In this document: positions 11,136 through 44,144 of the stretch, piece by piece
Numbering within the stretch: the first letter of the stretch is position 1
Layout of the letters: every line of letters begins with the position of its first letter
Origin: Candidatus Uhrbacteria bacterium
GTDB lineage: Bacteria > Patescibacteriota > Patescibacteriia > GWA2-47-26
Direction: 5' to 3'
DNA length: 64,000 nucleotides
Assembly: GCA_016187515.1 (NCBI GenBank)
Contig: JACPJN010000009.1
Location: 132,891 to 196,890 of the forward strand
Translations under genes and position numbers: made by a program
Notes under the pieces: generated by a model
Database searches by the model: none
Seen by the model: the letters and a program-made list of their open reading frames with translations, nothing else
What the model was told of the DNA's origin: nothing

Positions 11136-11139
11136 AGTA

Positions 11140-11928: not shown

Positions 11929-11931
11929 AGT

Positions 11932-12945: not shown

Positions 12946-12951
12946 ATTAAT

Positions 12952-14596: not shown

Positions 14597-14666
14597 AGCA
14601 ATATAGCGACTTGCGCAAAAAGTTCCATACTTGTGCTCCCAAGGCGCATCAGCCCACGGCTGAGAA

Positions 14667-15692: not shown

Positions 15693-15695
15693 ATC

Positions 15696-15929: not shown

Positions 15930-15955
15930 AGTCGAATGGGTTATGAGTTATTAAG

Positions 15956-16135
15956 TTATTGGTTATTATTTTGTTTTTGATTTTCTAGGGCGTGTTTGGT
16001 AATTTCGACGTTGCAACTGTTTTGTGTGGTACACCACTGCTCACACTGGTTAGCCAAATCTTCTGATTCATAATGAAATCCGCACGCTTCACATTGATAT
16101 AATGGCTTATTGTCCTGTGATATGGATTTAACCAT
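15956..16135 (-). CDS. Small zinc-ribbon/rubredoxin-like protein (59 aa; not in ORF track)
   Basis: My translation: MVKSISQDNKPLYQCEACGFHYESEDLANQCEQWCTTQNSCNVEI... Shows a CxxC...CxxxC pattern. Sits directly upstream of grx and trxB. Confidence 0.4.
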   Translation of the reverse strand: MVKSISQDNKPLYQCEACGFHYESEDLANQCEQWCTTQNSCNVEITKHALENQKQNNNQ

Positions 16136-16147
16136 AAGTTTTCTATG

Positions 16148-16603
16148 TTACTTAATTTTGTATCGCATAAGTGCGCTGACTTGCACCGGATTTAAATGCG
16201 TAATCGGCCGGCGCTTTTTTATAAATGCTGCGGCCTGCAGTGTATTCATGCCAGTGGTCATCAAATATGCTGCGACAAGCGTAGGCGCCCGGCCATGTCC
16301 ATTTTTGCAATGTACATATACCGGAATCCTGTTCTGCGCACAAAATCGCAGCATGGCAATACCAAGCTCAAGTTGCCTAGCCGTTGGCGCTTTATGATCC
16401 GCAACCGGAAGCCACAAGTAATAGTCAACTCCAAACGGCGCGTCCAGTCGGTTTTTCTCCAACGAAATGTCCGCGCGGATTTTTTTCGCCAGCAGCCGCT
16501 CATCAAAATGCGTTTGGCAGCATTGATTCGTGCCGATATAGATGTATTCAGTGATTTTATGATAATCAAGTTTTGGATGTTGCGTGTGTCGCATATCTTG
16601 CAA
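16148..16603 (-). CDS. Dual-specificity/tyrosine protein phosphatase
   Basis: VHCKNGHGRAPTLVAAYL matches the HCxxGxxR P-loop. Confidence 0.8.
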   Translation of the reverse strand: MQDMRHTQHPKLDYHKITEYIYIGTNQCCQTHFDERLLAKKIRADISLEKNRLDAPFGVDYYLWLPVADHKAPTARQLELGIAMLRFCAQNRIPVYVHCKNGHGRAPTLVAAYLMTTGMNTLQAAAFIKKRRPITHLNPVQVSALMRYKIK

Positions 16604-16620
16604 TATTACACTCTCCGCAT

Positions 16621-17571
16621 TTACTTGTACAATTCAGTATCCTGATGCGCAGCAGTCCAGGCGAACCAAAATGAGCTGAAGGGATTAATGCGTTCCTGCC
16701 CTCCTTCTGGCAGACGGCGATACACGCGCACCACATCAAGCGCTTTGTCGTACTTAAGCACAAGGGTTTGGCCGGCAAATTCATCTACGACTTCGCCTTT
16801 TTGTTTTACCGCTTCTACCGGGTACGCTTTTGCCTTGCCATCCGTCACAATTCCAAATATAAAGGTGTCAGGCGTAAGTCGCGTATCTCGACCACCAGCC
16901 AACGAGCGCGCAAAACCCACCGAGGAAAAATAATCTCCATATGGACTTGTTCCATAAAAACGCGTGGCTCCGGTCTCCCGCGACAACACTTGCCCGTCCG
17001 GATGCGTAGCGCGCCACTTGCCGAACAACACCTGATCCGATGGCAAGAGCTCTAATTTTGCGCCAATCATCTCTCCCGCAATCGCCTCGCCTAAAATCTG
17101 CGACCATAAACTGTCGGTTTTGCGGTCGTACATCACCAGATTGGATTTCCAAAGCTTTCCTGATGTTCCAAACTCTATGCGCTCACCTTTCACTAAAGGA
17201 TCAAATACAAACCCGGTAAGGCACAGTGGGCAGTAAGTCACCAGAGTCCGCTCACCTTCAGCTGTGTCGTTGACGATCTCATGCCACACTAAAATTTGAT
17301 AGGGATAAAACCGGTGCGTAGCTCCGCGAGAAAATGCGATCCCCGGCTCGCTGTCATCCAGCCACCCCGACGCCTCTGCCGGTGCCATGAAAATTGGATT
17401 ATCAATTGACGGAATGCTATCCCTTCCTAATAGGTTTTTGATTTCACTCTGTGGAACACGACTTGGCGTCTCTTGCGTTGGTATTGGCATTTGATTGTGA
17501 AACAGCTTCCACCAAATTACAAATCCTGCCGCAACTAGAATAATGGCCAAAAATAAGATCCCTTTTTTCAT
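16621..17571 (-). CDS. DUF3179 family protein (signal-anchored)
   Basis: VWHEIVNDT...VTYCPLCLTGFVF...FGTSGKLWKSNLVMYDRKTDSLWSQ matches the conserved DUF3179 core. Confidence 0.65.
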   Translation of the reverse strand: MKKGILFLAIILVAAGFVIWWKLFHNQMPIPTQETPSRVPQSEIKNLLGRDSIPSIDNPIFMAPAEASGWLDDSEPGIAFSRGATHRFYPYQILVWHEIVNDTAEGERTLVTYCPLCLTGFVFDPLVKGERIEFGTSGKLWKSNLVMYDRKTDSLWSQILGEAIAGEMIGAKLELLPSDQVLFGKWRATHPDGQVLSRETGATRFYGTSPYGDYFSSVGFARSLAGGRDTRLTPDTFIFGIVTDGKAKAYPVEAVKQKGEVVDEFAGQTLVLKYDKALDVVRVYRRLPEGGQERINPFSSFWFAWTAAHQDTELYK

Positions 17572-17812
17572 ATTGAAACTTTACTACTTCAACACATGCA
17601 AAAGATACCCAAAAACCATAAATACAATGCCGGCAACGCCCGCATGCTGTTCCCGCTTCATTGCCCGAAAGACCGTTCGGTCAATTTTATGTTCCACCTG
17701 CACGCGGCGGTGCACCGATAGCGCAGTATAAGCAACCATAATTTTTCCAATGATGTCAAGTGTTGAGGCAAGGATATCCATATTGCTTACTCATATCCAC
17801 TCCTGCTATCAA

Positions 17813-18388
17813 TTAATTGCAACCGCAAGTTGACCCGTTTTGTGTTCCGCAGCTGCGGCAAGTGCCGGCCGGCTTGGCATTAGAAGTTTTTCCGCCGTCA
17901 ACCAGATGATTATGCTCCTGATGCGCCTGGCATGAGCATGAACATGCCGTGCAAGTTGTTTTTTTATCTTTCTGATCCATATTTTTGAATTGATAAACCG
18001 CATTGGATGTTTTAATTTTCGACCTTTTGAATTGTCTTTTGTTGTACGCAATCGCGACAATTATGATAATCGCGCCCGGCCCCCAAATCTGCCACGCTCC
18101 CCACGTGCTTAAGAATACATAACGACCAACATAGAGAAGCGCGACACCAATGACCAATAATATAAGCGGTCTCGGATTTTTGTGCGCTCGATAATCAAAA
18201 AGAAAACCAACGGCTCCGATAGCAATTAAACCAAATGCAAGCCACCGCCAGACAGGAATTAAAGCGCCTAATCCCAAATACGTAAGGAGCGAAGCCGAAC
18301 CAATCCAACAAAGCGGACAAACGCCTACTGCTCCAGCGCCTAAAACCGGCGCCAATCTTGTGAGTGCCTTTTCTATTGTTTTGCTCAT
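17813..18388 (-). CDS. Membrane protein with CPLC motif in TM1 and Cys-rich C-terminal tail (putative metal transport/binding)
   Basis: TM helices; tail CTACSCSCQAH...CRSCGTQNGSTCGCN; next to an ArsR regulator. Confidence 0.45.
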   Translation of the reverse strand: MSKTIEKALTRLAPVLGAGAVGVCPLCWIGSASLLTYLGLGALIPVWRWLAFGLIAIGAVGFLFDYRAHKNPRPLILLVIGVALLYVGRYVFLSTWGAWQIWGPGAIIIIVAIAYNKRQFKRSKIKTSNAVYQFKNMDQKDKKTTCTACSCSCQAHQEHNHLVDGGKTSNAKPAGTCRSCGTQNGSTCGCN

Positions 18389-18394
18389 ACTGAA

Positions 18395-18706
18395 TTACAC
18401 GCACGCTTTACATCGCTTGCAAAATTTTGAAATATGGCGATCCATGAGCTTTAGAAGTGGACCCACGGTCTCGCGATTAAGGAAATAGTGTCGCTCCCTG
18501 CCGCGCTGGACTACCCTCACAAATCCGCACAGTTCCAACCGACGCAGATGATGAGAGGCAAGACTTTGCTCCAATTTCAGTTTTTTAGCGATCCGGGTCG
18601 CGCTGATTGCCTTCTCCCGATTTAGAAGGTGCACAATATCCCAGCGCGCTTGATTACCAAGGGTCTCAAAAAATATCTGATGCGGCGCATGCGGAATGTG
18701 GGCCAT
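18395..18706 (-). CDS. ArsR/SmtB-family metalloregulator
   Basis: Winged-HTH core NQARWDIVHLL...ISATRIAKKLKLEQSLASHHLRRL and C-terminal Cys CKRCKAC. Confidence 0.75.
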   Translation of the reverse strand: MAHIPHAPHQIFFETLGNQARWDIVHLLNREKAISATRIAKKLKLEQSLASHHLRRLELCGFVRVVQRGRERHYFLNRETVGPLLKLMDRHISKFCKRCKACV

Positions 18707-18768
18707 ATAATATATGAATTATATATCATATGAAATATATGTCAAGTAATAATTATCCACACCCGGCA

Positions 18769-19632
18769 CTACAGCCTTGGTTGCGGAAGAAATTGATTGA
18801 GATTCGCCTGAAAATAACGGTCCACTCCCAGCCACAAGGCGATTGCCCAGATCACGAGAATAATTCCGCCAACTTGTCGAATACGCGCCGAGGCGCGCGC
18901 AAATCCCTTGATGCGCAGCGTAAGCGCCCGGCCGCCGTAGCCGATTAAGAGCATGGGCACAGCCGCGCCAAGGCCGTAGGTGAAAAATAGCAAGCCGCTT
19001 TGGAATACATTCTGTGTATTTGCGGCAAAGGTGAGAATCGCGCCAAGAATCGGACCGGCGCACGGGGTCCACACCACGCCAAGGGTTGACCCAATTCCAA
19101 ACCCGCCCCAGAAGCCGTTGCCCCCTCCCCTCGCCCCTCCCACAGGTGGAGGGGAAATGTGGGATTGTTTTCCTCCCCTGATGGGAGGAAAATTTTCAAT
19201 TGTTTCCTCCCCCCTTGTGGGGGAGGATGAAGGAGGGGGGTTGCAACACGATCCACGCGCACTGATTTTCCTCCACACAAATGTCCCCCTCACCACCATC
19301 CACTCCCACAGCGCCGGCACGGCCAACGCCACCCCGAATAAAAACAAGAGCACAATAGAGGCCACGCGCAGCGTGCCTTTGGAAATTCCCAGTACATCCA
19401 GAAAAATCGCAAACGCCGTGCCAAAAATGGTAAACGTCACCACGAGTCCAGCCACAATTCCAAGCGGCCGCCACTTACTTGTGCCCAAAGAACCGCCCAA
19501 AATCGCCGGAAGCACCGGCAAAAGGCAAGGCGCGGCAACGGTCAGCACCCCGGCGGCAAAAGAAAGAGGGAGAAGAGAAAACACAAAATGACAATTTCTA
19601 ATTGACCTAATTGCTCTAATTATTCTAAACAA
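18769..19632 (-). CDS. CcdA/DsbD-family transmembrane thiol-disulfide transporter carrying a ~46-aa in-frame GC-rich insert
   Basis: AAPCLLPVLP and VWTPCAGPILG match CcdA Cys motifs. Insert encodes CCNPPPSSSPTRGEE...GGARGGGNGFWGG. Confidence 0.65.
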   Translation of the reverse strand: MFRIIRAIRSIRNCHFVFSLLPLSFAAGVLTVAAPCLLPVLPAILGGSLGTSKWRPLGIVAGLVVTFTIFGTAFAIFLDVLGISKGTLRVASIVLLFLFGVALAVPALWEWMVVRGTFVWRKISARGSCCNPPPSSSPTRGEETIENFPPIRGGKQSHISPPPVGGARGGGNGFWGGFGIGSTLGVVWTPCAGPILGAILTFAANTQNVFQSGLLFFTYGLGAAVPMLLIGYGGRALTLRIKGFARASARIRQVGGIILVIWAIALWLGVDRYFQANLNQFLPQPRL

Positions 19633-19750
19633 ATCTCAATTCCCAATAACCAATTTTGGGATTTTGCGCCTCAGGCGCATCCGCCTTGGGCGTGAGGTGC
19701 TTGGACATTTCTTAGGTCAATTAGGATAATTAGGTTAATTAGGTTAATTT
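19601..19750. repeat. AT-rich degenerate repeats (ctaattg / aattagg units, inverted arrangement)
   Basis: Direct read; promoter region of the ccdA-like gene. Confidence 0.7.
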
Positions 19751-20274
19751 TACAACACCTGCTGCACTTTCTGTCTCAACTCTTCTTCGGAGTGATCTCC
19801 GTAGAACCGATCCACGGGGTTTCCGCTTTTATCAAGCAACACATAACTATGCTGATAGTTGATGCGATACTGCCGCATGAGCGGCTGATTATCATCCACA
19901 TTTACCCGCACGCCCATCACGGCCAGATTATCCTGCCGGGCGCGATTAAAAAACGCTTCATTAATCGGCTCTTGCCCCCGGCAGGTTCCGCACCAGTTCG
20001 CATAAAAGTAGAGAAGCGTGGCGTTACCGCTCGCCAGCGCTGCACTCAATACTTCCGGCGTGTACTCTTTATAATTCTCGGTCGCGGTAAACGGAATTTT
20101 TGGCCCGCCCAGCGACGGCTCCCCTACCACGGTGGGTAAATCGGCCCCGGGTGTTCCCGCATAGGGCGCTGGAGGCGAATTTCCCCGAGAGGCCCAAACC
20201 ACTCCGCCAATCACAATCACCGCCAGCACTCCACCCACTGCATAAATTAGATTTTTTTGAATTTTAATCTCCAT
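19750..20274 (-). CDS. Thioredoxin-family thiol-disulfide oxidoreductase (TlpA/ResA-like, WCGTC)
   Basis: Signal anchor and the motif LYFYANWCGTCRGQEP. Confidence 0.7.
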   Translation of the reverse strand: MEIKIQKNLIYAVGGVLAVIVIGGVVWASRGNSPPAPYAGTPGADLPTVVGEPSLGGPKIPFTATENYKEYTPEVLSAALASGNATLLYFYANWCGTCRGQEPINEAFFNRARQDNLAVMGVRVNVDDNQPLMRQYRINYQHSYVLLDKSGNPVDRFYGDHSEEELRQKVQQVL

Positions 20275-20332
20275 AAGGAAAGTTATTGAGTTATTATGTT
20301 ATTAAGTTCAAAGTTCTCAATAACTTAATGAC

Positions 20333-21106
20333 TTAATGGCTAACCGCCACTCCATGCATCCCATCCGCCCCGGCGCCGCCATGAGTTTGGTGACCCAGCG
20401 CATCCACCCGACCAGTGGCCAAAAGATAATCCTCAATCACTCCTTTGGGATACCAAACTCCCTTCCACCTCTGCAATTCGCCTAAAATCTCTTCATCGGT
20501 GTATTGGCCTCCATATCCCTGTAAAATATGCTTGGCAATACTGCGATACGCTTTGGCATGACGGCAGCCGCAGTTATTAATGGCCGTAACCCGCGTAGGC
20601 CCGCCGCAACAGTAATCGCAAGTCATGGTGCTAACAATTTTTTCCCACCGCGTCTGAAGATCGCCGTTTAACTGAATCTGATCTTCAAACGGCTGCCAAG
20701 CGGCCAGCGCGCCAACCGGATCATCAAAACTGATCCCGGGCGGCGCGTAAAACGGCGTTCCGGTCGCGATCATCACTATTTTGGCCGCCTCCACCGCGTC
20801 CAGCCCCTTTGGTTCTGCCGGAACTTCGGTAATCGTGGGCTGTTTAACCACTGCAGTCGTTCGCCCATCCGGATTGATTTTTGTCGCGATAATTTCCCGC
20901 GCCGAAGCGCCTTGAGTGGTAAACAATGCTTTAATACTCTTCAGTGTATTTGAGGATCCCTGGGCCTTCGGCACCATCGCGCCAATCATAAATTGGTTGA
21001 CCGCCACAAGAATTGTAACTAGCCAAATGCCTAGTTTATAAGAAAGCTCATGACTCAACTGTTCTCCAATTTGCAATTTCATATATAGGTAATTTCCAAA
21101 TTCCAA
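20333..21106 (-). CDS. Hypothetical protein with Cys cluster (CDYCCGG...CGCRHAKA)
   Basis: ORF; real start may be the internal MKLQIGE. Confidence 0.35.
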   Translation of the reverse strand: MEFGNYLYMKLQIGEQLSHELSYKLGIWLVTILVAVNQFMIGAMVPKAQGSSNTLKSIKALFTTQGASAREIIATKINPDGRTTAVVKQPTITEVPAEPKGLDAVEAAKIVMIATGTPFYAPPGISFDDPVGALAAWQPFEDQIQLNGDLQTRWEKIVSTMTCDYCCGGPTRVTAINNCGCRHAKAYRSIAKHILQGYGGQYTDEEILGELQRWKGVWYPKGVIEDYLLATGRVDALGHQTHGGAGADGMHGVAVSH

Positions 21107-21230
21107 GCACCAAATTACAAGGAAATCCTAATCTCCAAATCACAAATTACAATTATTTGTAATTTGGAATTTGTGGTTTGGTATTTGTTTGTTTTTTGGG
21201 ATTTGTGATTTGTGATTTCTCAATTAGCAC
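21101..21230. repeat. AT-rich inverted/tandem repeats (caaattaca / tgtaatttg, tttgtgatttgtgattt)
   Basis: Direct read. Confidence 0.7.
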
Positions 21231-21454
21231 CCCCCTACCATTCCTTGCAGCCCTTGATGACCAGATCCGCCCGCGGCAGGCGCTGCCGCGGCTGATGCTG
21301 ATGTAGCCGATGCCGGACGCACGCTAACCGCGCCCTTCAACCGCGCGAGTTGAAAGGTCTGAAACCCGGCAATAACGGCGACAAGAATTAAAGCCCCAAT
21401 CTGCCAATTGATTTTAGGCAGTCGCAGTGTAATCGTATTCGGTGTATCTGACAT
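21224..21454 (-). CDS. Small membrane-anchored hypothetical protein
   Basis: ORF only. Confidence 0.25.
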   Translation of the reverse strand: MSDTPNTITLRLPKINWQIGALILVAVIAGFQTFQLARLKGAVSVRPASATSASAAAAPAAGGSGHQGLQGMVGGC

Positions 21455-21497
21455 ATGAGTTATAAAGTTATTGGTTATTAAGTTACTGGGTGATTAG

Positions 21498-22352
21498 CTA
21501 TTGGGTTGGTGGCACAGTAGGCGCTTGCGCCGGTGGTTCTGGTTTTACCACTTTTCCGGTTTTTAAATCATGGTAAACGCCCATGAGCTGCTGACCGGCC
21601 CGAAAGATGTGCGTCCCGTCCTTTTCCACCGTACCGACCTGCGTCCAGACCTGCTGAAATTGCGGATACTCGGCCAGGTCGCCGGAAATCAAAATGGTCG
21701 GGGCGCTGACAATCTTGTAGAGTGCGATCAAGCGCTGTCCTTCTCCTTCACCACGATCCACAAACTTTTCTTCCGAGGGAGTCATGGCCAATCCAGCGAG
21801 CGCCCGGCGATGCAGCGCCACATCATAACACTCCGCGCAGGATTTATCCGAGACATAGGTAACGCTGAATTTTCCCTTTACGGCTCCGGAGGGAACTTCG
21901 ATATAGGGAGCCGGGACATTACTGACGACCAACGTCCCATCCTCGGCCCGCTTGCCCAGATTCTCGATAAACGAGGGCTGATCAAAAACTTTTTCAATCT
22001 CTCCTCGGATCAGCACGGTTGGCACCCGAGTAATTCCGTATTGCTTAATCAAGGCAATCCCTTGATCGCTAGTATGCTCAAAGAATTCTTCCTTGCTGAT
22101 TTCCGCCCCGGGATTGCTCTTAATCGCCTCCACTACATTTTCAACCCTAAAACATTCTTTGCAATCCGTCGCGGTAAGTAGGACTAGTTCAATTTTGGCC
22201 GGCTTGGCGGCTTCCTCCGCCAAGAGTTTCTCTTGTGCAACTTTATTTTGCGCGCGATATAACATTGCCGCGTTTACCGCCATAATCCCCCCGACCACCA
22301 GAAAAAGGGTTAGATGAACGGCGGTTTTTCTTGAAATGTGTGTGATACGCAT
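21498..22352 (-). CDS. Membrane-anchored protein with two CxxC motifs (CKEC, CAEC), putative tandem thioredoxin-like disulfide oxidoreductase
   Basis: TATDCKECF and SDKSCAECYD; N-terminal TM. Confidence 0.45.
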   Translation of the reverse strand: MRITHISRKTAVHLTLFLVVGGIMAVNAAMLYRAQNKVAQEKLLAEEAAKPAKIELVLLTATDCKECFRVENVVEAIKSNPGAEISKEEFFEHTSDQGIALIKQYGITRVPTVLIRGEIEKVFDQPSFIENLGKRAEDGTLVVSNVPAPYIEVPSGAVKGKFSVTYVSDKSCAECYDVALHRRALAGLAMTPSEEKFVDRGEGEGQRLIALYKIVSAPTILISGDLAEYPQFQQVWTQVGTVEKDGTHIFRAGQQLMGVYHDLKTGKVVKPEPPAQAPTVPPTQ

Positions 22353-29094: not shown

Positions 29095-29330
29095 CCCTTA
29101 ATCCCCTCCTTGGAAAGGAGGGGAAATCTTAACCACCCCTTAATCCCCTCCTTGGAAAGGAGGGGAAATCTTAACCACCCCTTAATCCCCTCCTTGGAAA
29201 GGAGGGGAAATCTTAACCGCCCCTTCTCCCACCCCCTCTAACTCCCCCTCGCCTGCCCGCCTCTGGAGGGGGCAGGGGGAGAAACCTCCTTGCCTGTCCG
29301 CCTCTGGCGGGGAAAGGAGGGGAAATCAAA
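29095..29330. repeat. Three tandem copies of a 42-bp hairpin unit (cttaaccaccccttaatcccctccttggaaaggaggggaaat), then a GC-rich palindromic segment
   Basis: Direct read. Confidence 0.85.
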
Positions 29331-36619: not shown

Positions 36620-36625
36620 ATAACT

Positions 36626-36686
36626 TAGAGTTTAGAGTTTAGAGTTTAGAGTTTAGAGTTTAGAGTTTAGAGTTTAGAGTTTAGAT
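36626..36686. repeat. Tandem 8-nt repeat (agagttta) x about 8
   Basis: Direct read; between the coiled-coil gene start and the GT4 gene end. Confidence 0.9.
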
Positions 36687-36687: not shown

Positions 36688-37818
36688 TTATAGCACACCC
36701 TTGTCCACAAGCGAAGTGTATAACTTTTCGGTCTCCGCCACCACTTTATCCCAGTCAAAATACCGCTTAATAAAGCCCAAGGCCAGCTTCCCTTTCTCCC
36801 GCACAATTTCCGGGTGATTGATTAGTCCGACAATCTTTTCGGCCAGATCGCTGACGTTCCCCACTGCAAATGGCACTCCGGAATGGTCAATGGCTTCCAG
36901 ATTCTCCGGGATATTGGAAATCAAGACGCATTTTCCGAAACTCATGGCTTCCAAAATCGTCAGTGATAATCCTTCGGACTCGGAAGGATGCACATAAAAA
37001 TAGGCGTGCGCGTAAAGCTGCTTCAGCTCGTCTCCGGTTTGATAACCGGTAAAAATAATCCGGTGATCTGCGGCTGCCAACTGTTTCAGGTACGCGCTGT
37101 AATCCGCGGTAAAAGAAGGCGCCCCCACAATAACCAGCTTCATCTCGCCCTTGACTTCCTCCGGAACTTGTCGGTAGGCCTCGATCAGATAGTGAATTCC
37201 TTTATGTTTAATCAGACGCGCCACGGTGACCAAATAACCATTTTTCTGCAGTCCCCATTGTTTAAGCGCCGCGCTGGATTCCATTTTGTGAATTTCTACC
37301 GCGTTGGGAATATAATGAACATTTTTTTTGTATGCTTGCCGGCAATATCTCACAATTGAATGTGAGACGCCAATCGTGGTATGCGGAATATGCGTGGCAC
37401 ACCACTCTCCGATGCGCAGCACGAACCGCGCCCAAAACCCCCACTTGGCATGAAACCGATCAATGGAATGAAACGTCACTACGATTTTAGCGCGCGTAAA
37501 AAGCCGAGGAATCCAGGATAAGAGCGCCGGGCCGACACCGTGGAAATGGATGATGTCGTACCTAGAGCGTAGAGCATAGAGCGTAGAGCATAGCGTAGAG
37601 GAAATCGTGCCTAAGTGTTTGGTTGGAATTTCCGGCACGCGCGTGAGTTTCACGCCATTCCACATATCATCTTTGGTGGCCACATATCTTTTACGCACAA
37701 ATACCGTAACCTCATGCCCGCGCTTCGCCAAGCGCGTAGATAATTCCTCCACATGCCGCTCCACTCCCCCGTCCCGATAGAAAGGTATGGCCTTCTGTCC
37801 AATGAATGCTATTTTCAT
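36688..37818 (-). CDS. Family 4 glycosyltransferase (GT4)
   Basis: C-terminal EGLSLTILEAMSFGKCVLISN resembles the GT4 E-x7-E region; N-terminal Rossmann-like fold. Confidence 0.8.
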   Translation of the reverse strand: MKIAFIGQKAIPFYRDGGVERHVEELSTRLAKRGHEVTVFVRKRYVATKDDMWNGVKLTRVPEIPTKHLGTISSTLCSTLYALRSRYDIIHFHGVGPALLSWIPRLFTRAKIVVTFHSIDRFHAKWGFWARFVLRIGEWCATHIPHTTIGVSHSIVRYCRQAYKKNVHYIPNAVEIHKMESSAALKQWGLQKNGYLVTVARLIKHKGIHYLIEAYRQVPEEVKGEMKLVIVGAPSFTADYSAYLKQLAAADHRIIFTGYQTGDELKQLYAHAYFYVHPSESEGLSLTILEAMSFGKCVLISNIPENLEAIDHSGVPFAVGNVSDLAEKIVGLINHPEIVREKGKLALGFIKRYFDWDKVVAETEKLYTSLVDKGVL

Positions 37819-37828: not shown

Positions 37829-38569
37829 TCAAACTACTAACGATAACCTCGCCCGCTCGTCGCGTATGAGCGTCAAGACCTCTCGTTTCAGAACTTTTCG
37901 GACTAGCTGAAACTTCGCTGCGGGAAGGAGATAATTTAGGTCCTCCGAAAGTATCCGGTCGGTAATCTCTTGATCCACAAAGACATACAATTTCGCAAAA
38001 AAATCTTTTACCTTCATTCCGCTCCCCTCCCGGATCACCTCGGCGGAATAGTGGTACCCGCGCATAAAGAAAAAATGGACATCATACACGTCTCTTCCGG
38101 CAATGTTTCCGTGCGCCTCCGATCTTCCGATGAGCGCAAGAAGTTTATGCGCAAACATCGTCTCGATCGTCTGACACGTCAAAATACGATCAATCTCGGG
38201 CAGACGTTGCGGAGCGTAAGTATTCGCAGAAAGCAATGGAAATGCTGTGTCAATCTTTATAGCATTTCTTCCCTCCTCAATATACCGAAGAAAATATTGG
38301 ATGCCTTTTTTACTTGAATCCTTCACGGAAAGTCCAAGCGCCGTAAAGATGCGCTCAAGCGCGGTACGCGTTGCGACAATTTGTTTTTTGTCACCCGCAA
38401 AGTCAAAGTCAAGGTCAACGGAAAACCGATCAAGCCACCCGAGCATTGAGGCGCAAGTCCCTCCTTTAAAATAAAGCACATCTGGCAAAAACGGATCGTC
38501 CGCAATTTGCTCCAATACTCTATAAAGCCACGCTTTGTGCAGGGCGTCGTTTTTATTTGGTATGGTCAT
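37829..38569 (-). CDS. AbiEii/AbiGii-family nucleotidyltransferase toxin (type IV TA)
   Basis: YFKGGTCASMLGWLDRFSVDLDFDF matches the AbiEii signature. Confidence 0.7.
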   Translation of the reverse strand: MTIPNKNDALHKAWLYRVLEQIADDPFLPDVLYFKGGTCASMLGWLDRFSVDLDFDFAGDKKQIVATRTALERIFTALGLSVKDSSKKGIQYFLRYIEEGRNAIKIDTAFPLLSANTYAPQRLPEIDRILTCQTIETMFAHKLLALIGRSEAHGNIAGRDVYDVHFFFMRGYHYSAEVIREGSGMKVKDFFAKLYVFVDQEITDRILSEDLNYLLPAAKFQLVRKVLKREVLTLIRDERARLSLVV

Positions 38570-39176
38570 AACCTTTCATAATAGAGGACGGGTATCCAAT
38601 CGCGCGAACAATATCCCGCACGGCATCCCAATCAACTGCGGAAGGAACATCAAAGTGTTTTTTGGGATTAAAATAAAGCGTATCGGCAACCGCGCGCGGC
38701 AGATCGGCCATGCGAATTCCATCCCGAGTGTGCACTCCCGCGTCATTAAAAAGGAATTCGTCTGCCAACTTTCGTGAGCGATAGTCGTAACCGGCCAGAG
38801 CGAATCGCCGTGACACGCCGCTCACTATTGAAACAGAACGCGGCGGCTGACTAATAACCCCGGCCTCGAAAAGGACCGTCTCGCACGAAATATACGCCGA
38901 GCCATGCAATGCTTTTAGACCGATTAGATACGGATGAAGATCGGCCGGTTTTTTTATGGAATACAAACCCTTCTGAATCCTAAACAGCAGTCCCTGCGCT
39001 ACATACCGGGAAAGAGTCATATGCAGGGTGGAGGCCTTGCGGATATCCCATAGATTGGCAAGATCATTAACATGAAATACCTGCTCGCGAAGCGCCGCCA
39101 AACGCGAAAAACGCTCGCCGGACGACTCTCGGGAGCGAATAATGCGTTTATCGGCTTTTAGCATATTGCTGTTCAT
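38553..39176 (-). CDS. AbiEi-like antitoxin/transcriptional regulator
   Basis: Position and size relative to AbiEii; start trimmed to MNSNMLKADKRII. Confidence 0.5.
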   Translation of the reverse strand: MNSNMLKADKRIIRSRESSGERFSRLAALREQVFHVNDLANLWDIRKASTLHMTLSRYVAQGLLFRIQKGLYSIKKPADLHPYLIGLKALHGSAYISCETVLFEAGVISQPPRSVSIVSGVSRRFALAGYDYRSRKLADEFLFNDAGVHTRDGIRMADLPRAVADTLYFNPKKHFDVPSAVDWDAVRDIVRAIGYPSSIMKGYDHTK

Positions 39177-39352
39177 TAACCTATACTTATATGTATAGTA
39201 TAAATGAACTAAAAAATTTGTCAAAAGCCGTGGGCAAGGATTGGAAAATGCAACTAACCTCATCTTTCCGCTAGCTGCTTTTTATACAAAAAAACGCCCC
39301 CGGGACAAATCCCAAAGGGCTGAACAAGGAACAGCAGCGGAGAAGAATGGCA

Positions 39353-39964
39353 CTAGGTGCGGCACGGCACTCCGGGCTTGTTGCACTTGCATTCTGCGCG
39401 ACTATCGTAGCACCCGCCTGGCGGAAACGCCCCGGGTGGACAAGGCACGCTTACTCGCACACACCAGCCACATGGCGTTTCATTATCCGGACAGCAGATA
39501 TGGCAGGTACGCTGGAATCCGCAGTATTGAGTGCGGCAATTACCGCTCGGATCGGAAGGACCGCTGTGGTCTTCGTCAGCCGGATCCACGCACTCCCCTA
39601 CTGTTTCCTGCGTTGACCGACACATATTTGTCAACGGCGGGCAGGTACACGGCTTACGCTCTTCCTGCCATCCACCGCAGCATTCACCGCGGCGAGGCGC
39701 AGGACAGTACTCCCTGCAGACATACTTCACTTCTTCGCATCGCACGCAGCAGGGCGCGTCAGTCGGCCCCGGCCTATGCTCTACGCAGTGGCAGGGCTTG
39801 TTCGGCTTGGGAAGCGATCCTTGTGGCGCGTTTTCTTGAACGCCCTGGGCAAACACCAAGGTTTCCAGGGCAACGCGCTTGAGCAATCCGGTGGTGTAGC
39901 TGAACCAGAATGTGCCGATCACCAGTGGCACCAAAAACACGTACTTTCGTGATTGGCGGTTCAT
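39353..39964 (-). CDS. Secreted cysteine-rich protein (about 30 Cys), hypothetical
   Basis: N-terminal TM/signal, then dense Cys patterns (CHCVEH, CCVRCEE, CCGGW, CTCPP, CHICCPD). Confidence 0.5.
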   Translation of the reverse strand: MNRQSRKYVFLVPLVIGTFWFSYTTGLLKRVALETLVFAQGVQENAPQGSLPKPNKPCHCVEHRPGPTDAPCCVRCEEVKYVCREYCPAPRRGECCGGWQEERKPCTCPPLTNMCRSTQETVGECVDPADEDHSGPSDPSGNCRTQYCGFQRTCHICCPDNETPCGWCVRVSVPCPPGAFPPGGCYDSRAECKCNKPGVPCRT

Positions 39965-39973
39965 GATTATCTC

Positions 39974-40615
39974 CTACGGACGCTCGCGGGGTGGTTCAGG
40001 ACAAGGCCCGCAAGGATACGTGTCACATACAAAATAACACCCTTTGCTATCCTTACAACAACGCTCCGGTAGTTTTTCCGTGCATTGACGGCCTCGGCAC
40101 CTGGTATAACAACCGTTCGGTCCGTGGATGTTATGTGCGTCACAAAGCTGTGCTTCGCACCGCTGCTTAGTTTGGCAGTGGCTGACTTCTTCGGCGTCGG
40201 ATGCGTGTCGCGGATTCTCGCATGCACTCGGACATGAGCACTTCCGCTCATTGCACATGATCCAGCCAATGTCGGTCCGGCAGCATGTGGTGAACACAAA
40301 CTGACCGCAGCTATCACACCCGCTCCTGCATCGCTCACCTTTGAGCGCCTCACGGCACTTCTCACGCGTCGGGAAGCTCGGGCTGGCGCGAGCCGGCTCC
40401 GGCTCCTCGTCCGCCGCGATAGCATCGTTACTCACATGCGGAGTCGTGGCCTCGGCAGTGACCTGTGCCTGCCTTTCCTGCGCGTCTTGCGCGTAGGCCC
40501 ACGCCACCGCGCCACTGATGAGGATGACCGTCAGTATGACGCTCAACATGGACGTCCATGCCTTCTGGCTGAGAAGACCGCCGAAGTAGCGCTTTCGCGA
40601 ACGATTGATTGTCAT
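39974..40615 (-). CDS. Secreted cysteine-rich protein (paralog-like), hypothetical
   Basis: Signal anchor, then Cys-dense region (CRSGCDSCGQ, TTCCRTD, CSCPSACENP, CGPCPEPP). Confidence 0.5.
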   Translation of the reverse strand: MTINRSRKRYFGGLLSQKAWTSMLSVILTVILISGAVAWAYAQDAQERQAQVTAEATTPHVSNDAIAADEEPEPARASPSFPTREKCREALKGERCRSGCDSCGQFVFTTCCRTDIGWIMCNERKCSCPSACENPRHASDAEEVSHCQTKQRCEAQLCDAHNIHGPNGCYTRCRGRQCTEKLPERCCKDSKGCYFVCDTYPCGPCPEPPRERP

Positions 40616-40748
40616 GGTACTACCTCCTATTTAAACCATAACCCCTTATTTAATATATGTCAACCCTAATTTGTCCACAGAATTTTAAGCAAGAAAAGAC
40701 CGAGTGCGAGATACTTCAACACTCGGTATTCATGTGCCTCCATAATTG

Positions 40749-41921
40749 TTACCACTGCCAGGGAGAAATCTCAAACTGCAAACCAGTGGTAATCCGCAGA
40801 TCCTGTCCGGGGTTAACATGGACGATTTCCTGTTCAAGCCGCATCCACTCAAACCCTATCCAATTCCAGACCAACGTAACTTGCCCACTCACCGGAATGC
40901 GTAGACCAAACTTCCCATTGGCCTCCCGATGCAGACTTTCCGAAGAGAGCGGCAAAAACAAACGCAATTCTCCGAACGGCTGTACCACCCCGCCGAGTTT
41001 GGGCATTACCCCCTCAAGTAACACCATCCAAAATGAGGAATGCGCGTAAACTACCTCGGGCATTGCCGGTTTTTCCATCTGCGGTGACACGCGATTCATC
41101 ATTGTTTCCGCGTGATGAATGTGCCGCAGGCGCCAATCCGCGCCGCCGGGTCCGACATGCAGCCGCAGACGCCAACTATCCGGATCAAACATACTTTCCG
41201 GTATGCTCCCGGACGTGCGTTCCACAAGCCCGTCCAATTCCGCTTGCAGGTCTGCACACCGCTCGGCGCTTTGTTCATCCGACTTGGCCGCATCCCGAGC
41301 TTGCCTGCTAACGGCCTTAAGAGTATCCCGCAAAACCGGACATAACGGCGCAGTCCGTTGCGTTCGCGCGACAAGCACCAGCCCGACTCCTCCGCTTCCT
41401 CGAAGATGCGAAAGTATATCATTATGCACCCCTTCCTCAACATCCCCAAACACAATTCCGGATCGCTTTCCATCTCCATACAAACTCACTCCCAAAATCA
41501 AAACGCCCCAGGAAAACGCTCGGCCATACGCTGCTTGCGGAAGAATCGCGTCAGCGGCTCCTGTCCAATCCACCAGTACATCATCGTGTATTTCTTCCCC
41601 GTCATCTGCTGTGGATTGCTCCGGACTTCTCGCTTCTTCAGCATGCCATCGCAACATCAAGGCGGTCCGCACATTCGCGTACCATGCACCAAACCCGCCA
41701 GCCGGTTTTATCAAACCGTAGGTGGTCAATTGCAGTTCCACTCCACCGCTGACGGTAAAATGCGGCTGATCTTCATGAATTTCCGCCCCCATCTGAACAT
41801 CACGCAGATTCAATTGCGGCCTGAGATACCACGACCTGCCTTGCGCATAACCATTTGGCAAAGCCATGACTTGCGCAAGCACAACCACTACAGCATGCCG
41901 ATAGAAAACTGTGCAGATCAT
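40749..41921 (-). CDS. Putative outer-membrane beta-barrel protein
   Basis: Signal peptide, amphipathic alternating strands, C-terminal aromatic end FEISPWQW. Start codon overlaps the upstream gene (ATGA). Confidence 0.4.
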   Translation of the reverse strand: MICTVFYRHAVVVVLAQVMALPNGYAQGRSWYLRPQLNLRDVQMGAEIHEDQPHFTVSGGVELQLTTYGLIKPAGGFGAWYANVRTALMLRWHAEEARSPEQSTADDGEEIHDDVLVDWTGAADAILPQAAYGRAFSWGVLILGVSLYGDGKRSGIVFGDVEEGVHNDILSHLRGSGGVGLVLVARTQRTAPLCPVLRDTLKAVSRQARDAAKSDEQSAERCADLQAELDGLVERTSGSIPESMFDPDSWRLRLHVGPGGADWRLRHIHHAETMMNRVSPQMEKPAMPEVVYAHSSFWMVLLEGVMPKLGGVVQPFGELRLFLPLSSESLHREANGKFGLRIPVSGQVTLVWNWIGFEWMRLEQEIVHVNPGQDLRITTGLQFEISPWQW

Positions 41922-43507
41922 TGGGAATCTCCTTTATTGATTGGTGGTTTCTTCGATCCGCTATAAAGCGAAAATCCCAGATACCCTCCGCCTCCTTGTT
42001 CACCCATCAATGCGCCAAAATGCACATCCAGGTTAAGATCCCGCAACAGTAATGACAAGGGTTCAATAGCCACAGTCACACCGACCATATTCGGAATTGG
42101 AATTATGCCTGCCGTAGGCGGCACTATAGACCCACCGGAACGTTCACCCATCGGCTCATAACCCAACCACAGGTAGCGGGCCTCAAATCCAGCTCCCACA
42201 TTGCGCACGCCGCCGTTATTCCAAAAGCGTCCACGGATACCAAAGCCGCCACCGCCTGCCAAATCAGGCGGAGGGCTGCCAGCAAGATACCCGACAAGAC
42301 CAAAGCGTAACCGCAAGAGCAGGCATAGATCCATCGGCACTTCACCCTCGTAGGTGAGTACATATGGAATTGGCGTAAGCGAAGTTCCAACTACCCCACC
42401 GCCCCGCACCAATCTGCCCGCCGCAAATGACGGCACACCGCACCACCAGCATGGCGGCCAAAGGATCTGCACCGGGCCTTTACAGCATCCGGGCCAAAAC
42501 CAACTCTTGAGCCCACGCTCGCAGGTCAGGCACGTCCACCGCAACCAGGTTTCCCAGCATTTCACGCAGTCCTCTTCATTTTCTGATTCTTCTGGTGTTG
42601 GTGGCCTGGGACTGGGTGGCGCTGGGGGTTTAGGCAGTGGGGAGGGCAACTTAATCGCCACCCTAAGAGATACTACCACGTGCAAGGCCGCAAAACGCTC
42701 CTCATCACCTGATTTTTCCGCTCGCCCAAGCCGCTCATAGCGCGGAGGATTTCGTTTGATGGATGTGGCCTTCGCGTTAGGAAATACCTCGCTCCACAGC
42801 TTACCTACCTTGTCCTTCAAGTGGTCATACGCCCAGTTATCAGCAAAGAAGATCCGTAGCAGTCCCAGTTGAACATGCGGGATTTGCTCTTTAGCATATT
42901 CATCGCTTTGCGCGACCTTCTGATACTCTTCCTTTTGCCCATCCGTAAGCGCAGCCCGATCTTCTCGGGCCAACTGGAGGTCCGCCTGGCCGGTAGAGCG
43001 CGTATTAAAATCCTGCGCATCAGATTGGCCGCGTCCGGTTGCGGTGAACTCGGAATGAACGACAGCAGTGTACCCTTTCGGCAGCGCGTCATTCAGACAC
43101 GCGCGGAGCGTTTCTCCCCACTCTTCTATATCGTTGGCGGTGTCAACCACGCTATACGCAAATTTTTGGTATTCTGAATACTTTCGAAGACCGTCCGCAT
43201 CCCACGCATGACTGCCGGATATCCAACTTTCGAGTCCGGGTATCAGCGGCATCTCTTCAGGCAATCTGAATTGCCCAAGTTTGTATCCAGAGACCTTAAA
43301 TTCTTGCGTAATCTCGTAGCTCACAACTCCATTTTCACAGCGCACCACGCGATCGCTTGCGACCGCATTGAGTTGAACGATACAAGGCGCAAGCGCGTCG
43401 CACACATCAGTCGTCACGTCTTGCGCAGCGTTGGCGTACGCCGAACTGCTGACCATGGCCCAAAGGATGCACACCCCGGGCCAGGCGTTCGTAAGTGGCC
43501 TTTCCAT
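41918..43507 (-). CDS. Large secreted protein with Trp/Cys-rich module (CVKCWETWLRWTCLTCERGLKSWFWPGCCKG...CWWCG) and Gly-rich C-terminal region
   Basis: Signal peptide; first gene of the apparent 4-gene operon. Confidence 0.45.
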   Translation of the reverse strand: MERPLTNAWPGVCILWAMVSSSAYANAAQDVTTDVCDALAPCIVQLNAVASDRVVRCENGVVSYEITQEFKVSGYKLGQFRLPEEMPLIPGLESWISGSHAWDADGLRKYSEYQKFAYSVVDTANDIEEWGETLRACLNDALPKGYTAVVHSEFTATGRGQSDAQDFNTRSTGQADLQLAREDRAALTDGQKEEYQKVAQSDEYAKEQIPHVQLGLLRIFFADNWAYDHLKDKVGKLWSEVFPNAKATSIKRNPPRYERLGRAEKSGDEERFAALHVVVSLRVAIKLPSPLPKPPAPPSPRPPTPEESENEEDCVKCWETWLRWTCLTCERGLKSWFWPGCCKGPVQILWPPCWWCGVPSFAAGRLVRGGGVVGTSLTPIPYVLTYEGEVPMDLCLLLRLRFGLVGYLAGSPPPDLAGGGGFGIRGRFWNNGGVRNVGAGFEARYLWLGYEPMGERSGGSIVPPTAGIIPIPNMVGVTVAIEPLSLLLRDLNLDVHFGALMGEQGGGGYLGFSLYSGSKKPPINKGDSQ

Positions 43508-43584
43508 GGGTTGCTCCTTAATTTGTTGGCTGTTTTATTTCAAAGGACTATCTTTGTCTTAACATGACTATAAATATCTGTCAA

Positions 43585-43680
43585 TGACCGTAACCTCATG
43601 TCCGCGCCGCGCCAACCGCACCGACAACTCCTCAACATGCCTTTCCACTCCCCCATCTCTTTTCGGGTTTAAATCAAGTG
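43585..43680 (-). pseudogene. Truncated 5' fragment of a GT4 glycosyltransferase paralog (about 80% identical to 37700-37790)
   Basis: Encodes NPKRDGGVERHVEELSVRLARRGHEVTV versus FYRDGGVERHVEELSTRLAKRGHEVTV in the intact GT4 gene; no downstream gene body. Confidence 0.55.
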
Positions 43681-43890: not shown

Positions 43891-44144
43891 ATATCTAGCG
43901 CCCATTGATTGCCATCATGTGCGTCACGCACAAGACCACAAAAAGTGCTCCATCTGTATCCTGTCCCGACTCGTCAACGTAGGCGTAGAGTTTTTGCATA
44001 GGTGTTCATTGTACCACGGATGCGGTGCTGTTATCTAGAAATCCAGAAACAAAAAACCCGCCCGCGGATTTTCCCGGGGCGGAAAGGACAAAAGGATGAT
44101 CTGATGTTTTTACGGCGCGGCGTTTCGCGGGACCGGATGCCTCC

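Follow-up and report, generated by a model that had tools for sequence, protein, structure and literature searches.

Four genes for putatively exported proteins of undescribed families in a candidate accessory cassette of Candidatus Uhrbacteria

Four minus-strand genes in a contig of Candidatus Uhrbacteria (CPR/Patescibacteria), an ultra-small groundwater bacterium, encode proteins, here called P1 to P4, which belong to no known family. We give an even chance to the reading that they form an accessory cassette, acquired and specific to this lineage, within a variable cell-surface locus, with four Sec-exported products of undescribed families, probably arranged in two units, P1-P2 and P3-P4. 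The acquired and variable character is suggested by the content of the same slot in two other loci, by a 76-nt repeat, by low codon scores and by foreign SD use. All four products are annotated as "hypothetical" in the source contig. An earlier note, made from the letters of the window (the whole stretch of 64,000 nt that was analysed), had proposed a four-gene operon and a candidate envelope or secretion module. Its observations were partly confirmed; of its interpretation, the picture of family-less, apparently exported proteins, compositionally distinct from their flanks, stood, while the secretion module did not.

Gene layout and coding status

The open reading frames were recovered exactly where they had been described, all on the minus strand: P1 at 41918..43507 (529 aa, NCBI MBI2552791.1), P2 at 40749..41921 (390 aa, MBI2552790.1), P3 at 39974..40615 (213 aa, MBI2552789.1) and P4 at 39353..39964 (203 aa, MBI2552788.1). 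The P1 stop and the P2 start overlap as ATGA, as had been reported, and P2 is translationally coupled to P1. P3 and P4 are separated by 9 nt, P2 and P3 by 133 nt. The latter spacer contains a sigma-70-like promoter, TTGACA-17-TATGGT (40635..40663, minus strand, 10/12 matches), and a hairpin resembling an intrinsic terminator, followed by a T-run, lies 3' of P4 at the end of the unit (39297..39318, minus strand). A similar element, TTGAC(A/T)-about 17-TAnnnT with a strong SD site, was found upstream of P3-family genes in three other contig families (L036, L007 and L037-39). Because of these promoters, P3-P4 is probably a separate transcription unit starting at the P3 promoter, and P1-P2 the other. 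Of the single operon proposed earlier, the tight packing held for P1/P2 and for P3/P4, while transcription as one unit is uncertain, given the near-consensus promoter before P3.

All four start codons were preceded by an SD site (AAGGAG/AGGAGG) 6-8 nt before the ATG on the minus strand, namely AAGGAG at 43519-43514 for P1 and at 41934-41929 for P2, AGGAGG at 40628-40623 for P3, and AGGAG at 39975-39971 for P4, the last overlapping the P3 stop codon. Such a 5-mer stood before 4% of all minus-strand ATGs, and any SD core before approximately 4 of 42 resident genes. By synonymous codon usage the annotated frame was the best of six for P1 and P2, the P1 scores being above zero and low; those of P3 and P4 were poor. 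The scores of the cluster lay 0.9 to 3.6 sd under the resident mean, and both expression signals and codon usage were atypical for the host genome.

That the frames are shadow or chance ORFs in a GC-rich non-coding stretch, a scenario raised in the earlier note, is essentially refuted for P1-P3 and has a negligible probability for the whole. Long alternatives overlap the genes (39241-39882 and 41119-41721 on the plus strand, 39967-40425 on the minus strand), and P3 and P4 codon scores are no better than those of alternative frames. Against this, strong SD sites at the right spacing mark four of four annotated frames and none of five overlapping alternatives, the genes are joined by the ATGA and 9-nt couplings, their products begin with signal peptides, the P3 homologues match the annotated frame, and Rfam gave nothing above threshold. 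On the grounds of the SD sites, the ATGA coupling, the best-frame codons of P1 and P2, and P3 homologues with ten invariant Cys, P1-P4 are real genes; for P4, coding is suggested by its SD site, its position and a weak similarity to P3.

The four products and their relatives

Searches with P1-P4 against Pfam, NCBIfam, PHROGs, PADLOC, PDB sequences and folds gave no family match, in agreement with the claim that they resemble nothing characterised. A signal-peptide-like N-terminus or anchor was read from the sequence of each protein, Cys occur only in the mature parts, and the motifs quoted earlier (a Cys/Trp block, FEISPWQW, CCRTD, CSCPSACENP and CGPCPEPP) are all present.

P1 begins with a signal peptide (residues ~1-25, AYA/N), followed by a globular N-terminal domain, a Pro-rich linker (~286-305), an acidic patch, a block of 43 residues (314-356) that includes 8 Cys and 8 Trp, and a Gly-rich, beta-looking C-terminal domain of ~170 aa. 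For residues 333-357 the Wimley-White interfacial energy is -8.2 kcal/mol, on par with true TM helices in the window. The beta-moment of the C-terminal domain was not significant (z=1.6). Among billions of proteins P1 matched only itself, and no homologue was found.

P2 carries a signal peptide (GYA/Q) and ends in FEISPWQW. The alternating amphipathic pattern previously ascribed to it was present at both ends, where period-2 (beta-type) amphipathicity was significant (27-100, z=3.3; 300-390, z=3.6), and absent from the middle 200 residues, which are non-beta and partly acidic. The C-terminus that had been considered typical of outer-membrane barrels does exist, with its W-Q-W end, but because of polar residues at -5, -7 and -9 it is a non-canonical beta-signal and only partly OMP-like. 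A sequence search of 5.8 billion clusters returned only P2 itself, no relatives were found in the PDB, and the AF2 single-sequence model was uninformative (pLDDT 31.8).

These features bear on a quite unlikely alternative, in which P2, together with the P1 C-terminal domain, would form outer-membrane beta-barrels and a module dedicated to exporting or inserting P3 and P4. Likeness to such barrels and to type V (autotransporter, two-partner) systems consists in the Sec signal peptides of P1-P4, the tight P1-P2 coupling, a passenger-like P1 with head, Pro-rich linker and Gly-rich C-terminus, and the strongly amphipathic ends and aromatic terminus of P2 (F-N-W in the analogous protein of contig L036); SD sites and atypical codons would be compatible with transfer from a diderm donor. 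Yet published cryo-TEM and genomics indicate that CPR cells lack both an outer membrane and a secretin (PilQ), and the OMP, POTRA, TpsB, ShlB and autotransporter models of Pfam and NCBIfam were unmatched at E≤1. In addition, the beta pattern of P2 is confined to its ends, its terminal signal is non-canonical, the P1 domain shows no significant pattern, and P3-family genes are found elsewhere without such neighbours. A barrel with export partners is thus not supported.

P3 has a basic N-terminus, a TM or signal segment (19-43, AYA/Q), an acidic linker, a 10-Cys core (87-132) and a further Cys-rich tail. In a search of 1.84 billion representatives three distant homologues were found (E 1.8e-7 to 2.6e-4), and by sequence comparison the family of P3, with its 10-Cys core, is very rare. 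Invariant are C87, C96, C100, C103, C111, C112, C121, C126, C128 and C132, together with G99, G104, Q105, G117, W118 and P129. Retention of all ten Cys at ~35% identity indicates purifying selection on the core domain. The smallest members (102-127 aa) comprise signal, linker and the ~46-aa core. The P3 core was modelled by AF2 as a helix plus hairpin (pLDDT 70-82) and has CxxxC ... CxC spacing; we presume a resemblance to cysteine-stabilised alpha/beta peptides, while fold searches with the core gave no match.

P4 consists of a hydrophobic N-terminal anchor or signal and a Pro/Gly/Cys-rich ectodomain, and in the database search matched only itself. It is possibly a diverged paralogue of P3, as judged from BLASTP (E=0.004, N-terminal part) and hhalign (E=0.16, CC-GW-CxCP segment). 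The Cys content of the two proteins had been overstated (about 30 each, ~14%); we counted 22 in P3 (10.3%) and 25 in P4 (12.3%), the latter all in the mature part.

A conserved neighbourhood of the four families was largely not observed. Relatives of P1, P2 and P4 were not detected, and P3-family genes occupy different neighbourhoods in other contig families. L036, one 3.7-kb contig, is the sole contig with a parallel gene order, without significant sequence similarity. In locus L007 the P3-family gene P0013 is situated directly downstream of a CAP-domain gene. Proteins of the CAP (cysteine-rich secretory protein) family are common in CPR and are likewise exported; unlike them, P1-P4 have no CAP domain, and the adjacency occurs in one contig family only.

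The repeat-bracketed segment

The cluster belongs to a segment that a syntenic relative lacks and that lies between the copies of a gene-remnant repeat. The direct repeat comprises 76 nt, 80% identical, at 37698-37773 (codons 16-41 of the intact GT4 gene at 36688-37818) and at 43582-43657, 74 nt upstream of P1, both on the minus strand. The second copy, reading DGGVERHVEELSVRLARRGHEVTVIDRYL*, is the decayed 5' part of a glycosyltransferase gene and is similar, too, to the 5' ends of GT4 genes from relatives. The pair brackets AbiEii-AbiEi-P4-P3-P2-P1, and the remnant marks the upstream boundary of the inserted segment. Like the remnant, a short truncated ORF lies immediately upstream of the cluster. 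In the syntenic relative (L010, with a GT4 of 70% identity) the gene order o49374, TPR protein, o45536, GT4, PilT is preserved, and two unrelated secreted proteins take the place of P1-P4 and the AbiE pair; in L008 a 2969-aa surface protein occupies the same slot.

AbiEii (37829-38569; Pfam; PADLOC 2.2e-26) and AbiEi (38553-39263 as longest ORF; Pfam; PADLOC 1.7e-23), both on the minus strand, form a toxin-antitoxin/abortive-infection pair. AbiEi itself probably begins at a more internal position, 3' of a promoter-like site from the promoter scan (39224-39197, minus strand). The GC shift claimed for the cluster was overstated: it is small against the window (0.552 vs 0.523, 83rd percentile of same-size windows), and a contrast exists only with the immediate flanks, the AbiE pair (0.475) and the spacer (0.465). 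P1-P4, with GC of 0.55-0.59 and SD sites, and the AbiE pair, with neither, may have arrived separately. As in genomic islands with AbiE modules, the segment is missing from a relative, flanked by a repeat of the target gene, atypical in composition and adjacent to AbiEi/AbiEii; unlike them, it contains no integrase, transposase or tRNA attachment site, and its repeat copies are just 80% identical.

Foreign-looking SD use in an SD-poor genome agrees with the frequent absence of the anti-SD motif reported for Parcubacteria (PMC9297842). If the host ribosome has no anti-SD, the SD sites of P1-P4 could be relics without effect, and expression of the genes could be poor. It is conceivable, although unlikely, that the cluster is recently transferred DNA without function in this host, its ORFs intact with donor-type signals, hardly expressed and decaying. 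SD sites in a genome that otherwise ignores them, poor codon adaptation, the GT4 fragment and truncated ORF directly upstream, and the lack of relatives for three of the four genes would all fit. Decay is at odds, however, with four intact ORFs with coupling, promoter and terminator preserved, with the ten Cys kept in the P3 family, and with the complete identity (100%) of the segment across contigs of at least 8 samples, which indicates that it is stably carried.

Thiol-disulfide context and possible roles

The thiol-disulfide machinery noted in the window is present, as a DsbD_TM/CcdA-like protein, thioredoxins and a TrxB-like reductase at 14.6-22.4 kb, but is 17-25 kb distant from the cluster. 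An enrichment of MdbA-like oxidoreductases in CPR has been reported (bioRxiv 10.1101/335083). Cys restricted to mature parts and redox genes in the same window liken P1-P4 to disulfide-bonded exported proteins of monoderms (MdbA/VKOR or DsbA-type dependent; Actinomyces pilins; the CPR-enriched system), from which they differ in having no sequence kinship to pilins or known substrates, far denser Cys in P3 and P4 (22-25 per ~200 aa) and non-adjacent redox genes. Odd numbers of Cys in mature P1 (13) and P4 (25) are ill-suited to neat all-disulfide pairing.

The window also contains a P-type ATPase and a MerC-like protein. It is very improbable that P3 and P4 are exported proteins which bind metals through thiolates, as metallothionein-like sponges or as metallochaperones, and have no disulfide bonds. 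Their dense CxC, CC and CxxC motifs and the metal and thiol-redox genes in the window speak for it, but those genes are unlinked and 17-35 kb distant, and metallothionein and other metal-binding families were unmatched. Metallothioneins have ~30% Cys, while P3 and P4 are apparently exported, contain 10-12% and include aromatic residues.

Rather improbable, too, is a role of P3 and P4 as antimicrobial or toxin-like mini-proteins, secreted and rich in disulfides, directed against competitors or acting on the host, with P1 and P2 as accessory or protective components. The P3 family recalls defensin-like peptides and class II bacteriocins in its short signal-bearing precursors, compact multi-Cys core with helix, hairpin and CxxxC ... 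CxC spacing, patchy distribution, and a promoter and strong RBS for each gene, as in a self-contained, highly expressed cassette; the cluster, placed in an accessory locus, moreover has a defence/TA module next to it. Bacteriocin, defensin and toxin families and folds, however, were unmatched, P3 adds a second Cys-rich tail to its core, genes for an ABC exporter, a processing peptidase or a recognisable immunity function are missing from the cluster, and the long hydrophobic N-termini of P3 and P4 may anchor rather than release them.

In the preferred reading of an acquired surface cassette, P1-P4 would be exported through their N-terminal signal or anchor sequences. P1 would be a modular surface protein, in which a globular head and a Pro-rich stalk are followed by a Trp/Cys-rich segment with a preference for the membrane interface and by a Gly-rich beta domain, and P2 its co-translated, beta-rich partner. 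P3 and P4 would be small and either membrane-tethered or released, their ectodomains probably disulfide-knotted mini-domains folded by the extracytoplasmic thiol-disulfide machinery of the cell. From the context of the locus we infer that the four proteins, rather than forming a secretion machine, most likely act at the surface of the episymbiont cell, where they would touch host cells or competitors.

Coding status and transcription of the four genes

The four genes lie next to each other on the minus strand, which carries almost all genes of the window. In the direction of transcription they are P1 (41918-43507, 529 aa, MBI2552791), P2 (40749-41921, 390 aa, MBI2552790), P3 (39974-40615, 213 aa, MBI2552789) and P4 (39353-39964, 203 aa, MBI2552788), all annotated as "hypothetical protein", and the ORFs claimed in the earlier note matched these coordinates exactly. 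By exact look-up they were assigned to a 202-kb contig of Candidatus Uhrbacteria (CPR/Patescibacteria). Their neighbours are typical CPR envelope genes, coding for a PilT-like ATPase, FtsEX, lytic transglycosylases, Ig-like surface proteins, a TPR membrane protein and a GT4 glycosyltransferase.

The reported overlap of the P1 stop with the P2 start, as ATGA, was confirmed, and the gap between the P3 stop and the P4 start is 9 nt. Shine-Dalgarno (SD) sequences were found 6-8 nt before the ATG of all four genes (AAGGAG, AAGGAG, AGGAGG and AGGAG for P1 to P4, respectively), while such a 5-mer precedes just 4% of all minus-strand ATGs. Judged by synonymous codon usage, the annotated frame was the best of six for both P1 and P2. 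The codon measures gave poor scores for P3 and P4, partly because Cys codons are rare among the training genes; the reading frame of P3 is confirmed by homologues. For P4, the coding status is supported by the SD site, the position, an N-terminal hydrophobic segment and a weak similarity to P3. Taken together, the ATGA and 9-nt spacing, the SD sites, the best frames of P1 and P2 and the homologues of P3 show that P1-P4 are real genes. The alternative of shadow ORFs in a non-coding region is contradicted by SD sites in 4/4 genes versus 0/5 long overlapping alternative ORFs, by P3 homologues in the same frame, and by the Rfam search, which found no RNA family over the region and at a permissive threshold returned one chance snoRNA match only.

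The SD signals also distinguish the four genes from the resident ones, as only 4 of the 42 resident starts in the window carry an SD core, which is approximately the background rate. The start of the GT4 gene, fixed by homologues, has none, and neither has any of the six genes inspected in L010, the syntenic contig of Parcubacteria GW2011_GWA2_47_26. An anti-SD motif was detected in only 48% of Parcubacteria (PMC9297842), and the SD-poor resident genes fit this reported frequent loss. With such a background, an unbroken run of four perfect SD sites is striking. A strong SD in a genome otherwise lacking it would be a clean marker of recent gene transfer.

A single four-gene operon had been proposed. 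A near-consensus promoter, TTGACA-17-TATGGT (40663-40635, minus strand), lies in the 133-nt gap before P3, and a terminator-like hairpin follows P4 on its 3' side. Because of these two signals, transcription as two units, P1-P2 and P3-P4, is more likely, and read-through from the first into the second is possible.

Family searches and the Cys-rich core of P3

Searches of all four proteins in Pfam, NCBIfam, PHROGs and PADLOC assigned none of them to a family, the sole exception being a chance sub-threshold match of the transmembrane part of P3 to Rv1733c. PDB sequence searches gave no match for the single sequences or for three small profiles (A1, A2 and A3), and literature searches found no published description of the proteins. 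The initial impression that nothing here resembles a characterised secretion system, bacteriocin or metallothionein was thereby borne out, and at the sequence level P1-P4 fall outside all described families. Among 5.8 billion clusters, P2 and P4 matched themselves only and P1 had no relative; within the window, no paralogues were found.

P3 was the only one of the four with relatives. When 1.84 billion cluster representatives were scanned exhaustively with HMMER, three weak relatives emerged, P0011, P0012 and P0013 (E-values of 1.8e-7, 2.6e-6 and 2.6e-4). The alignment of P3 with these three proteins defines a core of approximately 46 residues, in which ten Cys and the residues G, GQ, GW and P are invariant, with the pattern C-x8-C-x2-GC-x2-CGQ-x7-CC-x4/5-GW-x2-C-x4/5-C-x-CP-x2-C; it is preceded by a linker and, before that, by a signal or anchor. 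Two of the relatives, of 102 and 127 aa, have nothing besides the signal, the linker and the core, and a second Cys-rich tail is present in P3 and in its 190-aa relative. On this alignment, the core is a new, very rare and unnamed Cys-rich domain, represented by four sequences among the 1.84 billion representatives. Both relatives of traceable origin come from groundwater metagenomes; the search of metagenome contigs for the P3 family yielded two short contigs from Hainich groundwater, and the P3-profile search of genome contigs yielded none.

P4 resembles P3 weakly and in part, by BLASTP in the N-terminal part (E=0.004) and by hhalign over the CC-GW-CxCP segment (E=0.16), and it could be a tandem paralogue that diverged from P3. 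AF2 gave an unusable model of P2 alone (pLDDT 32). The model of P3, built from four sequences, reached pLDDT 51 overall and 70-82 in the core alone, and Foldseek found no fold match for it in the PDB.

Both P3 and P4 had been described as containing about 30 Cys, or 14%. The counts are lower, 22 (10.3%) in P3 and 25 (12.3%) in P4. P1 contains 14 Cys, eight of them inside a 43-residue Cys/Trp block (residues 314-356), and P2 contains three.

The segment and its neighbourhood

Directly upstream of P1, at a distance of 74 nt, lies a 76-nt remnant (43582-43657, minus strand), which shares 80% identity with the GT4 gene over codons 16-41 and reads like a decayed N-terminal GT4 sequence with a stop at its end. 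The matching stretch (37698-37773, minus strand) is located 5.9 kb away within the intact GT4 gene (36688-37818), and the two copies enclose exactly AbiEii, AbiEi, P4, P3, P2 and P1. The AbiEi/AbiEii pair, a toxin-antitoxin (abortive-infection) system at 37829-39263 on the minus strand, is directly downstream of P4. A promoter-like site (39224-39197) lies inside the longest AbiEi ORF, and the true AbiEi start is therefore probably further in. PADLOC at E<=0.1 recognised only these neighbours, as AbiEi and AbiEii, and left P1-P4 unmatched. The spacer upstream of P1 also contains a short ORF, MQKLYAYVDESGQDTDGALF..., ending in a stop at approximately 43905-44010 (minus strand), which looks like a truncated gene start. 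It resembles the N-terminus of DUF3800, an identity that Pfam, giving no match, did not confirm. As both the GT4 fragment and the short ORF lie in the 43.5-44.1 kb spacer, it is suggested to be a patch of gene remnants. On the other side of the GT4 gene, a secreted Pro/Gln-rich protein of 441 aa starts at 36619, and nearly all of the 68-nt spacer between this start and the GT4 stop (36688) is taken up by a perfect tandem repeat of a 7-nt unit (TTAGAGT x 8.7, 36625-36685, 100% matches). The repeat may be prone to slippage and could serve as a phase-variable control region of the 441-aa surface protein.

Syntenic relatives were identified via the GT4 gene. In L010, whose GT4 is 70% identical to that of the window, the order of the flanking gene o49374, the TPR protein, the flanking gene o45536, GT4 and PilT is kept, with the flanking genes present on both sides. 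The slot upstream of its GT4 (7574-8997) holds two unrelated small secreted and anchored proteins and neither P1-P4 nor AbiE. The equivalent slot of L008 (95-9004) is occupied by a 2969-aa repetitive surface protein, and P1-P4 and AbiE are absent there as well as from L009. Since the content differs in each relative, the slot looks like an exchange hot spot for surface proteins in Uhrbacteria/Parcubacteria.

In synonymous codon usage, P1-P4 score 0.9-3.6 sd lower than the mean of the resident genes. The proposed shift in GC stands against the immediate flanks, the AbiE pair (0.475) and the upstream spacer (0.465), and fades against the window as a whole (0.552 vs 0.523, the 83rd percentile of windows of the same size). 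The segment thus has several features of a genomic island: it is absent from syntenic relatives, flanked by direct repeats and atypical in sequence. Two other island features were not found, as there was no integrase or recombinase domain in the ORFs between 35 and 47 kb and no tRNA, as an attachment site, between 34.4 and 64 kb. Elsewhere in the window, ARAGORN predicts a tRNA-Gly(tcc) of 83 nt whose anticodon is located at position 38 (29111-29193); the Rfam tRNA model confirms the other five tRNAs and not this one, which could be a false positive or else an atypical tRNA, e.g., one with an insertion. Nor was there a link to phages or plasmids, with no PHROGs match, no IMG/VR relative of P1, P2 or the P3 family, and no blastn match in phage or plasmid collections. 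Five other contigs with the cluster were 100% identical to the window, and one of them was present in eight or more samples from a single sequencing series. This identity indicates that the segment is stably carried, and it leaves no polymorphism from which dN/dS could be calculated. A rival explanation is that the segment is inert DNA, recently transferred.

A conserved gene neighbourhood of P1-P4 was mostly not recovered, as P3-family genes occur in differing settings. In L007 (224-1802), P0013 is located directly downstream of a gene for a membrane-anchored CAP-domain protein of the cysteine-rich secretory protein family, a family reported in the literature to be widespread in CPR, and in L037-39 P3-family genes adjoin unrelated small genes. 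Every P3-family gene in L036, L007 and L037-39 has AGGAGG, AAGGAG or GGAGG and a promoter of its own, TTGAC(A/T)-about 17-TAnnnT, and among the neighbours checked, two have no SD, namely the CAP-domain gene of L007 and, in L036, a CarboxypepD_reg gene. The genes accordingly behave as self-contained cassettes with donor-type or high-expression signals.

The only parallel in layout was found in L036, a 3.7-kb metagenomic contig. There (1-2209), the 154 C-terminal residues of a Gly-rich protein are followed by P0014, a signal-bearing protein of 355 aa with a GGAGG SD and the end ...TFNW, and then by the promoter TTGACA-17-TACGGT and the P3 homologue P0011. The arrangement parallels P1-P2-promoter-P3 in order, size and the terminal aromatic-amide-Trp motif. 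When P2 was compared with P0014, and the C-terminal domain of P1 with the upstream fragment, the sequence similarity was not significant (BLASTP E>=1; phmmer E=2.5 or no match). The z-scores of the same pairs, 1.2-2.9 in the global shuffle, were 0.2-1.7 in the block-preserving shuffle; since the signal disappeared when local composition was preserved, homology was rejected and only the architectural parallel was kept. We treat it as a lead and not as evidence for a conserved module. If the parallel trio is real, it would be a new mobile envelope cassette; if not, these are ordinary orphan secreted genes typical of CPR genomes.

Proposed role at the cell surface

The model put forward initially, an outer-membrane barrel with dedicated export partners forming a secretion module, is disfavoured. 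According to the literature, CPR cells lack an outer membrane as well as secretin and PilQ, and neither P1 nor P2 matched an OMP-type family in Pfam or NCBIfam at E<=1 or in the PDB sequence searches. No POTRA/TpsB or 12-strand autotransporter beta-domain was detected in P1-P4 by Pfam and NCBIfam, and no BamA-like gene among the window ORFs scanned. The alternating amphipathic pattern ascribed to P2 holds for residues 27-100 (z=3.3) and 300-390 (z=3.6); the period-2 moment of the central 200 residues is not significant, so the beta pattern is partial, and in the C-terminal domain of P1 it is not significant either (z=1.6). The terminus FEISPWQW had been considered typical of outer-membrane barrels. 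P2 ends in L-Q-F-E-I-S-P-W-Q-W, with Trp at -1 and -3, but with S, E and Q at -5, -7 and -9, where hydrophobic residues are needed, and the beta-signal is non-canonical; P1 ends in a polar tail, KKPPINKGDSQ. An outer-membrane barrel would become more conceivable if the donor of the genes were a diderm. A related proposal is that P2 and the P1 C-terminal domain are of beta-barrel type although the cell that makes them has no outer membrane of its own. The episymbiont would use them to place pores or anchors in the outer membrane of its Gram-negative host, with P3/P4 as disulfide-rich stabilising or adaptor partners, and the trio of a P1-like, a P2-like and a P3-family protein, with its parallel in L036, would be a mobile self-expressing module. 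We consider this very improbable; if it were true, such a host-membrane barrel cassette would be a host-interface device of a new type.

Two rival explanations concern P3 and P4. They could be bacteriocin- or defensin-like, but an ABC exporter/peptidase, a modification enzyme and an immunity gene are absent from P1-P4 and the immediate neighbours (AbiE, GT4). They could also be exported metal-binding proteins. Metallothioneins are small and cytosolic, with about 30% Cys and essentially no aromatic residues, whereas P3 and P4 are about 200 aa long, bear export signals, have 10-12% Cys, contain W, Y and F and match no family.

Thiol-disulfide machinery is present in the window, as had been noticed, although at a distance of 17-25 kb from P1-P4 (14.6-22.4 kb); it comprises a TrxB-like reductase (14667-15692), a DsbD_TM/CcdA-like protein (18769-19632) and two thioredoxin-fold proteins (19750-20274 and 21498-22352). 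They belong to a loose grouping of genes with metal and thiol-redox functions (3524-22352), together with a P-type ATPase (3524-5872), an SfLAP-like membrane protein, DUF3179 and a MerC-like protein below the Pfam cut-off (17813-18388).

The best-supported reading is an acquired exported-protein cassette. P1-P4 would be accessory genes, placed as a cassette in a surface locus of variable content, and the episymbiotic CPR bacterium would export all four products through Sec by way of their N-terminal signals. P1 would be displayed on a Pro-rich stalk, with the Trp/Cys-rich segment and the Gly-rich domain holding it at the membrane; the Wimley-White interfacial energy of the Trp/Cys segment is -8.2 kcal/mol, in the range of the true TM helices of the window. 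P2 would be its co-translated partner, and the ectodomains of P3 and P4 may fold oxidatively into disulfide-rich mini-domains. CPR encode MdbA-like oxidoreductases (bioRxiv 10.1101/335083), which may provide the disulfide context for P3/P4 together with the thioredoxin- and DsbD-type proteins of the window.

On this reading, P1-P4 would be of a familiar kind, namely exported accessory proteins of the cell surface, rich in disulfides and encoded on acquired DNA. In CPR genomes, variable loci as a rule contain orphan secreted proteins, and three genes of the cluster (P1, P2 and P4) are singletons. The cluster also offers a natural test of whether SD sequences still act on the ribosomes of a lineage in which, according to the literature, the anti-SD has often disappeared. 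CPR/Patescibacteria are obligate episymbionts, and to our knowledge almost nothing is known of their surface and host-contact proteins; the cluster adds four concrete exported candidates without a family, in a locus whose content varies between related genomes.
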